32,000 nt of DNA from Candidatus Harpocratesius repetitus (GCA_021498095.1 JAIZWK010000001.1:960001-992000), one strand, 5' to 3'; positions 19,401 through 25,400 are shown, numbered from the stretch's first letter. Numbers and translations: made by a program. The notes: generated by a model from the sequence alone, not told the origin.

Positions 19401-22400
19401 TAATATAAATCCGATACTGCGGTATCATTATTACCAGCTTTATCCTGTATATATGCACCAGCGCGGATCATACCATCAGGATATGCTTCGAGATCATAGG
19501 TGTAATCCCAAATATTGGCATTTTCCACAGTATAAGAAGAAAATGGAACTTGATGCACACTTCCGAGCGGCTGATTATATTCATCTGCATAAATATCCGT
19601 TAATAATGGCTTAAGTGTGTGTAAGGTAAATTCATAAGCCTCATCAATTCGAGCGGTTGCATTTGTCAAGTAATTGTTTTGCTGTTCTGCATATAACTCA
19701 TTTAATTGTATTAATGAAGAATTCAACTGATCGCGATCTGATTCAATTGATGTAATATTCGCATTGATCTCAGGAATAACAACATTATTCAAATTGTCAA
19801 TTTGGGTGTTTAAATCCGAAATTTCACTGTTATAATCGTTTATTTCATCGTTTAAATTGTTTATCTGAGTGTCAAGTTCAGTAATATCTTGTTCAAGATC
19901 AGCGATCTCCAATTCCAGAGAGTTGATGTCTGCTTCAATTCCAGGAATAGTGACGATTTCATATGTATTAATTAATTCTTCAAGGTTTGGAATGGTCGTC
20001 TCGGTTAATTCATTTATCTGCATCTCTAATGCAAGAATTTCATCTCCTGTTTCACCAAGTTGTTGCGAAATATCCGACATGTCGCTTTCTAAAACATCAA
20101 TTTCAGAATTTAACTGTGAAATTACGGTGTTATAATTCGTAATTGTGGCTTGAGCATTATCGACATTTTGCTGAGCGTTATCGAGATTATTTTGCAAGGT
20201 GTTTTGATCTGCGGTGTACTGATCAATTCGGCTTTGACTGTCGGTCATTCCTGGAGAATACACGTTATCACGCAGATTAATAAGATTTGTATAATCATTC
20301 CACACATTATCAGCATGGGTTGTTGCGGTTGTAATATCATCACTTCGTAGAGAAGCTTCGGTGTTTAACGCGCTTAATTGAGTATTCAAGTCGGTGATTT
20401 TAGAGTCGCATGTAGCAATATTATTGGGATAAGTAACATCACGGTCATTTTCCGCTTGAGCAATTTGAGAATTCAGATCGCTAATTTCAGAATCACAAAC
20501 GGCAATGTTTGCAGGATATGTAACGTCCCGTAGCGTAACTAGATCGTTATATTCACCGTGAAGGCCGTTCCACGCGCTGTATACTGTTCCTCCGACAAGG
20601 GTGGTATAAGCCGTACCGTCAATTTTCCAATTACAAATCCCAATCTTATCTGTAACAGTGAAATCTCTTTCATATACGAGATTGTTGTATGTTGTGTGGG
20701 TCGACGCTTCATTTGGGTATATTATATTATCCAGATAAGAACAAGCATCGTTATAGTTTTGCATATACTGTTCGTACTGATCTTGATCTGCATATAATGA
20801 AGTTAATTCCGCGCAGTACCAATCATAATTTGCTTGAGCATCTTGTTTTTCCTGCACTTTTGAATTATAATGTGCTTCTGCATCATTTCTTTGGTCAATC
20901 AATCCGCCGTTATCGTATAATGTGTGATAATACTGATCACGTACATCAAAATTATTAATCGCCTGAGATTTATAGGCTGCTTTTTGCTCTACATGTACCC
21001 AATAATCGTGCCAAAGTCCATTAGAACTTGCAGCATTTCCACCATTTATGCCAATTTCGGATACTTTTGTATCCCTTTCATCTTTGCGTTCGTCTCTGAT
21101 ACCTTTCCAATTAAGGTAGTAAGAGTAGTAAATATATTTATAGGTCGATTCCCATAAACCAAGATAATAGTTCATCCGATTCTCTGCATATGCAATAGAT
21201 TCAGAATTACTGCTTGGTCCGTCAAGCACGTCAACTCTATCTTGTCGAGGATTAATCTCATTGTATAAAACATTTTGATATGCTTGCTCTTCATTATACA
21301 TTAGAGTCCCAGATTCATACACCACAATATGTGCAGAACCGCTCATATACACTAATGTGCATAAATCTCCAGAATCACCATCAATAGTTTCTAGCAACCG
21401 ACTGCGTTCACTAATGTGCCAATTAACATCTGACACAAGAGATTGCCAATTCGAATAAGCGACACCAATTTCACCATGAGAATCATCACCTAAGTCAATA
21501 ACACGTTGATCCCAATAATCTTGCTGATATTCGTAATCTGCAATAATAGATGATTGATCTCCGATATTATTAGCTAATGTAAGATTGTCTGAAGCATATC
21601 CCTCCCAATTGGATTGAAGATGTACCCATGTCTGCCAATCATCATACGCATTTGGACACAATGTGTTGGTTAGCTGATTTTTACGGCTTTCATTTGCACT
21701 CAGATATCCTTCCCAAGTCTGCCAATCAGAATAGGCATCGCCTATAGTTCCGCTTGAATCATCTCCCAAAGCATTTTGAGCCGCTATATAATTGTTACGG
21801 GAGGTAGTCCAAGACTCAAGCTCCAAATTCAGTGAAGGAAGAACTACATCTATAATATTATCCAAGCTGGATTGATTATCATTTTTATATCCATGCCATC
21901 GATTAATTAGAGAATTTAACGCAGGAATTTGAACATTAACCAAGTTATTATATAAGCTTTGATTATCAGCACGATAGCCATCCCACGTTTCCCATTCATC
22001 ATAAATTACTGGTAGATCGATTTGAGCTTGATTATACAGAGATTCATTTGCAGTGTAATATATAGAATATAGGTTGATAAGGGAAGTAAGGGCATTGTAT
22101 CCTGTGCTTGGATCATTATAATTATTTTGAACATTAATAAGAGCGGGTTGATAAATATTATCTAAATTACTTTGCCAAACATCTCTTTCAGTTTGATTCT
22201 GGGCAAGATATTCTTCTTTTTTCTGCCATGTAGTATTAAGAACGATATAATTAGTGACTAAATAATCATATTCTTCTTGAGTTAATGTGAGATTGGCTTG
22301 GAGATTATCACGCTCTGCAGTAGAATTTCCGAGATCCGCATTTGCTTGCTGTAATTCACTTTGTGCAGATGCTAGATCCTCTAAAGCTTGGGCATATTCA

Positions 22401-25400
22401 TTATTTTTTTGAATTAATAGATTATTTTTATCAGTTTTAGTTTGGTTAATATTTTCTATTTGCGTTTGAATTGAAGTTATATTATCTTGAGCTTGGCTCA
22501 AGCTGTTCAACGCTTGGGCAAGATCCGCATTTGCTTGGGCAAGATCTGCTGTAGCCTGCGGTAAAGTAATATACACGAGATAATCAAGTTCTTTTTGAGT
22601 ACTATTCAATTCGCTCTGAGTTTGGTTCAGCTGCATTTCCATGACAGCAATTGAAACGAAAAGGGCATAAAGTTGACCGAAAAGGTTTTCAAATGTATCC
22701 GCAATTGTCTGCTGCTGATCTTTAATAAATTCTACAGGAAAATGAGACATATATTCTTCAATCAAAGCAAGATAGGCGTATTCACCGCTCGAATCTATTG
22801 GAAAAATATCATCAATGTTGAGCAATTCTCCTTGTTGAATTCGCCCTTTCATTAACTGCAATGTATATAAAATGCCGTTTAACGTGTCCAAAAATAATGT
22901 CCGGCTGTCCACCATTTGAGAGGGAAACAGTTCAGGATATTGCTCATAGGTTTTGTTGCGGGCAATCGCTGAATAATTTAGTGCGTTAGCGAGTATCATG
23001 GATTCATTCATAAATTCTGTAGTGAAAAAATCGATAAAGTATGAAAGTTCTTTAAGATCAGTGGTGAATTGATGCGATAATTCAAGTGAAAGAAGGGGAT
23101 TGGTTATCATCATCACTGTCTTTACAAGTGAATTATTCACGGCGGGATTGAGCAATGGGGTCGTAACTGTAATATTATCAATAGAAATAGTCGGGTCAAT
23201 CTCCAAATCAATAATTGGATTAATTGTATCAACATAATATAGCAAGTAATAATTTTCATGATAACCTTGGTAATAAGGGGTATATCTAATATAATACAGA
23301 TCTTCTACATTGCCCCATAATTCTTTTGCATCAAATGTTGTTGAAAATATCGATCCTTCTCCATTCCAATTAATGTATTCTGTAAATTGAGCCGCAGTAG
23401 CATCATAAGTGGGATTAACAGACACCGCAATTGATACATTATCTACAGGGCAGGTACCGAGATTACAAGTAATGGTAAAATGAGAGTTCACAATTCCCGT
23501 ATTGTTTGTTGGGCCTGAAAATGAGGGATTGAACTGCGAAATTCTTATATCGGATATCATCGTTTCCCAAGTTAATCCTGCATGATCGGTTAAGCGTGCA
23601 ACTAAATTATAGTACCCGAAATTTATTTGCCGTGGATCAAGCCATATACCATAATCGAGCTCCGTAATTTTATCTTCTAGCAAAATACCTTCAAAGGTAT
23701 AAGCATCTTCAGTGGTTCCTACCGGCTGTAAAACAAGATCTATAGAAACAAGATCTTTATCAGGAGTTATAACGTGAACATAACCGGGTACACTCCAAGT
23801 ATCACCATCACTAATATTTGCAATACATGCTTGGGGAGCAGTGTTGTCCACAATAACCTGTATCTGAGTAACATTAACAATATAAAATTTATCTCGAATT
23901 GAAAACCTAAGAAACAACGAATTTGTATCATAGTGAAACTGTTCATTATTGACCGTATCGAACCAAATTGTAAAACTCCAATCCACGTTTTCGGTAGTAG
24001 ACCCTATTTTCCCCCAATTTATCCCATCATAGGAAGCGTCTACTCGCACTTCTTCTACATCATGAGTAGCTGCTTTGAGAGAAAGTGCTACAGTTCCACT
24101 GAGAATATCTCCTGATTCAATATTTATTGAATGAGCAACCGGAGGCAAATCCTCCATTGTAATCGTTAAAGCAGTAATTTCAACTCCACCCATTGGAAGA
24201 TATCCCGCTTTCGCCGTTGATCCTTCAACCCGAATTCGATAGTAATAGGTCCCTAGGGATGGTGATCCATTTCCAGTATAATTGCTAAATAGTTCGGAGA
24301 GATCGCACTCAATGTCAACTTCTGAATAGGAAATCAAAGTAGACGCATTCAAGACGATAGAATCAATCAATAATTCATTCACGTAATGGGCTGTTCCCCC
24401 TTCATAGCTCCAAATTTCAAAGAAAATACTGACAGATACATCTGTTGCAAATGGACTCCACTGATCAATATAGGGATAAAATGACATATGCAAGGTCCCC
24501 TCAAACATCGTATCCCCTAATTGTCCTGCATCAATATTTGAATAAGTGCCGGTTATCGAGCTTGAAGCATTTGCACCGATATATTGGGGATCAATCGAAA
24601 AAAGGAGGGATTTTCGGGTAGGATCGGTCCGCTGGGCGGTTTGTACTTGCATTGGAAATGTTTTAGGTATTATTCCCTTATTCATTGATTCATATATCAC
24701 AATATCCGAAATTGACCAATATGAAAAGATTTCAGGTGGATTAAAGCGTTCTTCATCGACATATTGAGTCTCCATTGCTAAGGCATACAATGTATTATTT
24801 GTGATATGGTCAATAAGCGAATAGCTACCATCATTTCCTACCATTCCTATTTGATGAACACCTCCCGTTAATACATTAAAAGAAATATTGATGGGGTATC
24901 CTTCTGGATTATTATCAACTCCTTGAATGGTGTAATTTGAATTTCCAAATACAACAGGAATACCCGAATCAAACATTCCCTCAAATGTTTCTATAATAAT
25001 GTAACCAATCGTTTCATTTTCAGGTAAAGTTAAATTTACTGCAAGATCCGCAGCATGTAGTCCGAGGTGCATTCCATTATCACTTCCTCTCGGAATTTGA
25101 TTTGAATATCCAATTCGTGAAGCATAGCTCATAAGAAAAACAGGATTGTTCATCGTTTGGCGATAAGTAAATACCGCAATATCATCGTCAAATTCTGAGA
25201 AATCTATTGATTTATTTCCATTCCAATTATTACAACCTTCCACATAATTGGTGGTTATTGTACCTGTTTGAATTTTTTGGGCGGTTCCGGGGAAGGTTTG
25301 CACAGTTCCCAGTGTATCTTCACAGATCAAATAAGATACATTAATGCTTGATGGTTCGTTATTGATACCGTAATTATAATCAATGGAATTATAACGCACC

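Follow-up and report, generated by a model that had tools for sequence, protein, structure and literature searches.

A putative helical hairpin side arm on a giant surface protein of a Lokiarchaeia-like Asgard archaeon

The 32,000-nucleotide stretch of the Candidatus Harpocratesius repetitus genome analysed here (GCA_021498095.1 JAIZWK010000001.1:960001-992000; hereafter 'the window', with positions counted from its first letter) is filled nearly entirely by a single open reading frame (ORF), which encodes a protein that we call the giant. Our subject is a long helical insert in this protein, which an earlier note, made from the sequence alone, had placed at window 19640-22650 and read as an antiparallel coiled-coil hairpin of 70-75 nm.

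Window 2..29254, minus strand: giant ORF, crossing the left edge of the window, with 1,055 bases on the far side.

Followed through the whole genome, the giant ORF is stop-free over 10,102 codons. Residue i lies at window 29255-3i to 29257-3i, which places the flagged region at residues 2202-3205. The genome is a single contig of 4,361,485 bp with 31% G+C (GC). Because it encodes a eukaryote-type actin (PF00022, E 1.5e-130), and because of the relatives of the genome, we treat the source organism as a Lokiarchaeia-like Asgard archaeon. Hydrophobic segments near the N-terminus of the giant (residues 70-158 and 558-576) are followed by a strongly acidic body with many N-x-S/T sequons, while the final ~1,100 residues are basic and free of sequons. 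The giant is a putative membrane-anchored surface protein.

Comparison with paralogs that are missing the insert (G010b, G010c, G003 and G006) delimited it to window 19658-22654, nearly matching the boundaries of the earlier note, and identified the domain in which it sits.

Window 22967..23248, minus strand: first half of the host sandwich domain (residues ~2003-2096), aligning to the pre-bundle strands of the paralog model.
Window 22655..22966, minus strand: helical bundle, helices 1-4 (residues ~2097-2200), from paralog alignments and the paralog model.
Window 19658..22654, minus strand: the insert (residues ~2201-3199, 999 aa), from paralog comparison.
Window 19403..19657, minus strand: last helix of the bundle (3200-3220) and second half of the sandwich (3221-3284), from the G010b alignment.

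The paralog G010b sits in a 9,753-aa open frame, in which the sequences matching giant residues 1702-2094 and 3200-3577 lie ~85 residues apart; residues 2054 and 3130 of P0005, a homolog that carries the insert, correspond to G010b 2644 and 2675. Two further sequences (G006:C130 and G007:C167) do without a ~130-residue helical module as well, and their flanking beta-strand segments are only 16-26 residues apart. An AlphaFold2 (AF2) model of the G010b segment, built from a six-row alignment of insert-less and module-less sequences (mean predicted local distance difference test score (pLDDT) 69), has beta strands to residue 123, five helices (135-244) and then beta strands again. Its last two helices, TSAQTDFASNLSLLLSYLT (206-224) and LSSAYDLMLRTIKPHLT (228-244), are joined by the three-residue linker TDQ (225-227; pLDDT 84-92). 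The local alignment of the C-flank to G010b begins exactly at this turn, with residue 3200 of the giant equivalent to 225 of the model (BLAST E 9e-31). On the other side, N-flank residues 2142-2200 aligned to the insert-less L017, L022 and L026 up to 2196-2200, at a score reached by 0 of 300 shuffles; a pairwise comparison of the N-flank with the fourth helix of G010b itself was not significant alone. The last N-side helix of the bundle (~2183-2200) passes directly into the N-terminal arm of the insert.

In an exhaustive structural comparison, many single FnIII, Ig and PKD chains of ~95 aa aligned over model residues 55..316, across the bundle (91-101 residues, root-mean-square deviation 2.6-3.7 Å), with Z scores of 7.2-8.6 that lie in the tool's 'common' range and show fold class only. 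The modelled host domain thus falls in the fold class of ~95-residue Ig/FnIII-like two-sheet sandwiches. Pfam assigned no family to the flanks or to the module-less paralogs, and a Foldseek search of the paralog model against the PDB returned nothing at E ≤ 0.001. Since single chains align across both of its sides, the helical bundle is an excursion from one sandwich; the insert is therefore doubly nested, in a bundle within a sandwich, and its two ends must meet.

This closure bears directly on the case that the earlier note had set against its hairpin, a parallel homo-oligomeric stalk of ~150 nm with the flanks at opposite ends. An archaeal precedent exists in tetrabrachion of Staphylothermus marinus, a surface glycoprotein whose ~70 nm stalk is a right-handed coil of four parallel helices, its two ends widely separated, and the insert resembles it as a long, helical, sequon-bearing extracellular segment. 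However, the ends of the insert must meet, whereas those of tetrabrachion do not: in the paralogs, both flanks share one bundle within one beta-sandwich and are linked by three residues. A 150-nm separation would therefore destroy both bundle and sandwich, and we rejected a tetrabrachion-like arrangement on this topology, regarding it as extremely improbable.

The insert itself could be divided into five segments.

Window 22130..22654, minus strand: N-proximal arm (residues 2201-2375), a heptad coiled coil rich in Ala and Asn/Gln, with 1.7% Pro+Gly.
Window 21365..22129, minus strand: N-middle (residues 2376-2630), a row of about eight amphipathic helical units, each 26-38 residues long and rich in Trp/Tyr.
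Window 21110..21364, minus strand: tip (residues 2631-2715), containing CTLVYMSGSAHIVVYESGTLMY (beta-like), DVLDGPSSNSES (the turn) and YLGLWESTYKYIYYSYYLNW (Tyr-rich).
Window 20240..21109, minus strand: C-middle (residues 2716-3005), less regular, with one 46-residue module and two 29-residue DVTYP units.
Window 19658..20239, minus strand: C-proximal arm (residues 3006-3199), with the strongest heptad signal of the region.

Hydrophobic residues recur every 3.5-3.6 positions along the arms, with z scores against shuffles of 4.1 (N-proximal), 7.9 (N-middle), 2.6 and 4.8 (the two parts of the C-middle) and 11.1 (C-proximal). The C-side middle, at 2691-2910, is only weakly periodic (z = 2.6), and no helical periodicity was detected at the centre, 2631-2690. 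In all segments the power peaks at 3.5-3.6 and is somewhat lower at the hendecad value of 3.67, a difference that 28-residue windows resolve poorly. From residue 2170, in the flank helix, the heptad register continues with almost no break to 2352, and with none over 2212-2352. Hydrophobic residues occupy 14/18 and 16/16 of the a/d positions in two stretches of the C-proximal arm (the latter 3106-3160), which is broken at P3089, P3104 and P3161. In the middle, Pro+Gly rises to 7-7.5%, equivalent to a break roughly every 30 residues. These features do not bear out two continuous arms of ~500 residues, as the earlier note had it: clean heptads cover only ~175-195 residues per arm, and the middle is broken every ~30 residues.

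With 157 Asp/Glu against 43 Lys/Arg, the insert has a net charge of about -114, and it holds 16 sequons. The arms contain 26-33% LIVMFWY, a composition typical of fibrous rather than globular proteins; the tip is 42% hydrophobic and 18% aromatic. Sequons are unevenly spread in this part of the giant, with 16 in residues 2001-2500 (window 21755-23251) and 2 in 2501-3000 (window 20255-21754), from which we would predict hardly any glycans on the tip and on the distal half of the arm.

The helical units of the N-middle follow the pattern Y/W-D-x-W-x-T-W-x-G-Y-x-x-x-N-x-S...N-x-L and are joined by linkers of the form hydrophobic-Pro or GDD(S/T)(S/T)GxIG. A profile of the unit, which is partly circular because its seeds were drawn from both arms, matched 13 times in the two arms, always in direct orientation (5 of the matches were not seeds), and had no match elsewhere in the giant (9,100 residues). 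Pfam found no family at E ≤ 0.01 in residues 2331-3003, and a search of the ESM Atlas for structural look-alikes of 2375-3005 gave no usable match; the PDB sequence search with the whole insert returned one weak match (E 0.0036), to residues 3113-3186 within the C-proximal coil, and that with the tip (2590-2790) none at E ≤ 10. The ~29-residue, Trp/Tyr-cored repeat unit of the middle is previously undescribed. Tandem Repeats Finder detected no DNA-level repeats in the region, and the protein repeats are therefore old.

Two sequence elements of the middle deserve separate mention. An acidic linker, [LI]-G-[DT]-[DE]-[ST]-[ST]-G-x-[IL]-G, stands between the N-middle helical units and is conserved in all four homologs. 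It resembles a cation-binding or N-capping loop; we considered an EF-hand and rejected it by eye, the spacing of the GDDSSGxIG loops being unlike that of the canonical 12-residue loop. The 46-residue module, W-x-IDGT-x-Y...ERD, occurs once in the giant, on the C-side only (residues ~2862-2910, window 20525-20672), whereas P0005 has four tandem copies at residues 2767-2950.

A super-repeat of ~90 residues, made up of three units, is also visible in the N-middle (2399-2470, 2489-2566 and 2588-2624). Such a super-repeat might be expected if only a short antiparallel stalk (~25 nm) carried a compact distal domain, in which the middle units pack locally as three-helix, spectrin-like or alpha-solenoid elements. 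The regular breaks every 26-38 residues, the direct orientation of the N-middle helical unit in both arms and the variation in copy number of the 46-residue module on one arm only would also fit this arrangement. Against it, the middle is 30-33% hydrophobic, low for a globular or multi-helix core, and the Pfam, PDB and Atlas searches found no match to a solenoid or spectrin family. Spectrin-like repeats, which are three-helix units of ~106 residues, had no Pfam match (PF00435), but the giant does have its super-repeat of three helical units over 2399-2624. We regard a compact distal domain as possible, though doubtful.

Few relatives carry the insert. An exhaustive HMMER search of 1.84 billion representatives returned two fragments identical to the giant and a single true homolog, P0005 (E 4e-59); its other matches were low-complexity coiled coils aligned to the C-arm. 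P0005 (6,776 aa) is a distant homolog, at 29-32% identity, and has the whole region. Genome searches added two more carriers, G010a, which is one of the giants of genome G010, and G001, a copy from the same genus that is cut by a contig end, bringing the carriers besides the giant to only three. Beyond these three homologs, the middle and the tip had no relative among the 1.84 billion representatives. A word-indexed search for relatives of similar length to residues 2202-3205 found none, a search for related loci among genome contigs returned no relative, and a paralog search of the giant's own genome found no second copy of the insert. G010 is a single-contig genome of 6,035,313 bp from the same family as the giant's genome. 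It holds at least three giant paralogs (L013, L014 and L022, on G010:C1 near 0.76, 5.79 and 5.27 Mb) in open frames of 9,602, 9,753 and 7,597 aa, one with the insert and two without.

The turn motif at the tip is conserved in the homologs as SGSS or PGSS, allowing the arms to be measured from base to turn.

Giant: N-arm 480 residues, C-arm 511 residues (turn GPSS).
P0005: N-arm 467 residues, C-arm 571 residues (turn SGSS).
G010a: N-arm 412 residues, C-arm 423 residues (turn PGSS).

Arm lengths are balanced in two of the three proteins, the giant and G010a, even though the N-proximal arm of G010a is ~100 residues shorter. The apex of the 843-aa G010a insert is a plain helix, NDFTPGSSG and a further helix; judged from sequence, both this apex and the balance of its arms fit a hairpin. 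Between the C-proximal arms of the giant and P0005, indels of +22, -11, +3 and -14 sum to about zero, a cancellation which, from one sequence pair only, hints at a constraint on length.

The earlier note had drawn its hairpin from helix breaks that mirror one another about a common centre. Every residue it cited was found in place, both the eight prolines (2232/3161, 2444/2943, 2473/2914 and 2534/2847) and the motifs (DPSTG, YSPG, GDDSSGTIG, GGTVYSAWNG, GDDSHGEIG, DNGGL, GINGGN and DVLDGPSSNSES), but none of five tests found the mirror symmetry itself significant (P 0.05-0.59). Of the 16 prolines in the region, 5 are paired by the best centre when a sum window of 12 residues is allowed, and random placement gave at least 5 in 13% of trials. 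When the centre was fixed from the paralog-defined boundaries of the insert (sum about 5401), proline pairing had P values of 0.05-0.38, depending on the window. The mirror correlation of Pro+Gly gave P 0.08 for the giant and 0.46 and 0.08 for two homologs, none significant, and its best shift in the giant, +15, was unlike that of the earlier note. When clusters of breaks were matched with a tolerance for drift and compared with shuffled spacings, P was 0.54, 0.59 and 0.15.

Part of the apparent symmetry is due to a local 29-residue spacing of prolines. Prolines stand exactly 29 residues apart in both arms (2415/2444/2473 and 2914/2943/3001), and the pairs 2444/2943 and 2473/2914 are therefore not independent. 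Four other centres each gave 4 proline pairs, and these centres are spaced by 58, 90 and 58 residues, roughly multiples of 29. Despite the local spacings, global proline periodicity over the whole region was not significant (P = 0.58). A candidate inter-arm disulfide, Cys2533-Cys2875 (sum 5408), was also rejected, as Cys2533 aligns to Met (ITMP) in P0005.

As the earlier note proposed it, the hairpin would be a continuous two-stranded antiparallel coil of ~500 residues per strand and 70-75 nm, with its breaks facing one another pairwise and its turn at DVLDGPSSNSES. Paired prolines at a kink are known from PrgA of Enterococcus faecalis pCF10, in which each helix has one proline and the two lie side by side (10.1101/2020.06.18.156562), and by analogy PrgA shows a precedent for the logic of paired breaks, though the pairing is not significant in the giant. 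A continuous coil would also agree with the hairpin topology seen in the paralogs, with amphipathic periodicity along almost the entire length, with arms that are low in hydrophobic content throughout and with a conserved turn near the geometric midpoint in the giant and G010a. Beyond the failed mirror pairing, the 104-residue difference between the arms of P0005, the weak periodicity of 2691-2910 and the Pro+Gly content of the middle all speak against it, and we think such a continuous coil unlikely. Hence the length of 70-75 nm given by the earlier note stands as an upper bound and not as an estimate, and its antiparallel topology is upheld by the returning ends, as seen through the insert-less paralogs, but not by the symmetry of breaks.

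The pairing of arm segments, for which the earlier note had looked to structure prediction, was examined in a two-chain fold of residues 2170-2380 with 3020-3225. This gave weak support, scoring 0.55, compared with 0.00 for the best of three controls. The mark for a positive result was reached by 58/80 solved complexes and 2/110 mismatched pairs; scores of 0.60 or under accounted for 7 of those 80 complexes and for both passing mismatches. Runs agreed in at least 20% of contacts and the pLDDT of the partner was at least 84. The calibration counts are only approximate here, since the fold used our own small alignments, and with unrelated proteins as controls, specific pairing is not separable from generic coiled-coil affinity. 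On this prediction, pairing of the proximal arms is plausible.

Taken with the topology, these data lead us to favour, at a probability of roughly 60%, a reading of residues ~2201-3199 as a side arm of a giant Asgard surface protein, folded into a helical hairpin. Its hairpin topology has good support from the paralog alignments and model, and the site of insertion, the meeting of the two ends, the helical periodicity and the composition are shown by the data. A small up-down helical bundle interrupts a loop of a single Ig/FnIII-like domain in the ectodomain, and the last two helices of that bundle, which in the paralogs are joined by a 3-residue turn, are each extended by about 500 residues. 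At the base the extensions would run antiparallel in a two-stranded coiled coil, with ~175 residues in each strand; at 0.148 nm per residue this amounts to about 26 nm. Beyond the base would come a segmented, aromatic-cored helical section, with breaks every ~30 residues and variable side modules on the C-strand, and, at the end of the arm, a hydrophobic, Tyr/Trp-rich tip of ~85 residues. If everything were extended and paired, the tip would lie 64-72 nm from the base, which is an upper bound. Such an arm would keep the tip tens of nanometres, and at most about 65-70 nm, from the Ig-like chain, where it could touch other cells, surfaces or neighbouring molecules of the envelope in an organism without an S-layer.

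Several observations weigh against the favoured hairpin arm. The paralog model is only moderately confident, and for its helices 4 and 5 antiparallel packing is deduced from the three residues that connect them. Single-sequence AF2 of residues 2190-3230 had a mean pLDDT of 37.6 and was unusable for topology, and the two-chain result, itself weak and controlled with unrelated proteins, gives neither interface nor orientation. The C-arm of P0005, with its four 46-residue modules against one in the giant, is 104 residues longer than its N-arm (467/571), an excess by which strict two-strand pairing over the full length fails unless modules loop out. In G010a, the ~100-residue N-proximal deletion has no equal in the aligned C-proximal part. 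The ~90-residue super-repeat of the N-middle is also compatible with self-contained three-helix repeats. Finally, the proposed role of the arm in contact is pure inference.

The same topology and periodicity would equally support pairing between molecules, with arms forming domain-swapped dimers or four-helix zippers that tie neighbouring giants or opposing membranes together. In the cryo-tomography of a relative, surface densities link parts of the protrusion network (PMC9834061), as intermolecular pairing might predict. The charge of the insert, however, disfavours self-association without counter-ions, and we consider intermolecular pairing of this kind distinctly improbable.

Several known systems offer comparison with the hairpin arm. 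The dynein stalk is a cytoplasmic coiled-coil hairpin of ~15 nm that bears a microtubule-binding domain, with registry shifts coupled to its ATPase; like it, the giant's arm would be a coiled-coil hairpin leaving a folded domain and ending in a small tip element, but the coupling to an ATPase is without counterpart in the giant. In streptococcal antigen I/II adhesins, repeats on the N- and C-sides pair antiparallel into a ~50-nm stalk with a tip domain. That stalk is made of an alpha helix and a polyproline helix, whereas both arms of the giant are alpha-helical, and the two are not related in sequence. SMC, Rad50 and MukB insert an intramolecular antiparallel coil in a globular domain and have a special element at the apex. 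The hairpin arm would share this arrangement and be comparable to theirs in length or longer. Unlike them, it stands in an extracellular setting that bears glycosylation sequons, and the giant has neither the ABC ATPase head nor the hinge or zinc hook of SMC and Rad50. All SMC/Rad50 matches were below threshold, the NCBIfam SMC match covering residues 2916-3197 only (77.4 bits against a cut-off of 567). Pfam found no ATPase domain, the flanks of the insert being a helical bundle in an Ig/FnIII-like sandwich, and within the tip (2631-2715) there is only one Cys, with no CxxC.

Functionally, the best analogue is PrgA/Sec10, whose N- and C-proximal halves form a stick that holds a middle domain away from the cell; in the solved structure of PrgA, a 38.5-nm two-helix antiparallel stick presents a CAP domain (10.1101/2020.06.18.156562). 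The stick of PrgA is the body of a cell-wall-anchored protein, while the giant's arm branches off from within an Ig-like domain and returns to it; it is at most twice the length of the PrgA stick, and its middle is segmented and rich in aromatic residues. No CAP domain (PF00188) was found at the tip by Pfam (2331-3003, E ≤ 0.01) or by PDB search (2590-2790, E ≤ 10). TIGR04320 matched residues 2231-2323 at 22.6 bits, a compositional match given how far it lies below the cut-off of 70. Coiled-coil hairpin stalks as a kind are known, and what is unusual here is the nesting of one in a bundle within an Ig-like domain of an Asgard giant.

Elsewhere in the giant, the C-terminal ~1,800 residues (window 2-4357, which is residues ~8300-9751, plus sequence beyond the left edge) have paralogs in the same genome, at C1:1,521,059-1,524,052 (48% identity over 9118-9491), 1,630,994-1,632,028, 1,338,392-1,338,991 and 4,185,908-4,186,312. 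The basic C-terminal part resembles a shared module, probably a cytoplasmic one. GC is 25-32% at window 1-2000, where this Lys/Ile/Asn-rich part lies, and 34-40% in the remaining ORF. A lone hydrophobic segment of 19 residues, LITFIWGEVISFATLIIIA (4250-4268, window 16451-16507; mean hydropathy 2.16), lies deep in the presumed ectodomain. An Rfam scan of the window gave no match. Among the sequencing runs listed, none was of RNA, and two DNA entries came from one sample, which is possibly the source of the assembly.

Cultured Lokiarchaeia have no S-layer, and many unidentified proteins protrude from their single membrane, some of them connecting different parts of the network of protrusions (PMC9834061). 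Such proteins are discussed as mediators of cell-cell contact relevant to eukaryogenesis. The hairpin arm would tie a concrete and measurable shape, a slender arm, 25 to 70 nm long, that leaves an Ig-like chain and ends in a hydrophobic tip, to a gene family, and the presence of paralogs with and without the insert within one cultured relative makes the assignment of tomographic densities testable. At its most extended, the insert would be largely a two-stranded antiparallel antenna of about 60-70 nm, built of Trp/Tyr-cored ~29-residue units and ending in an aromatic tip. We hold this bolder version to be improbable; if true, no longer intramolecular hairpin stalk would be known from any prokaryotic cell surface, the antenna being nearly twice the 38.5 nm of PrgA, and it would be one of the tomographic surface densities with which Lokiarchaeia bridge protrusions or touch syntrophic partners. 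The paralogs also form a natural series, from no bundle, to a bundle, to a bundle with a hairpin of 840-1,050 residues, which would show how coiled-coil arms arise by the extension of an alpha-hairpin.

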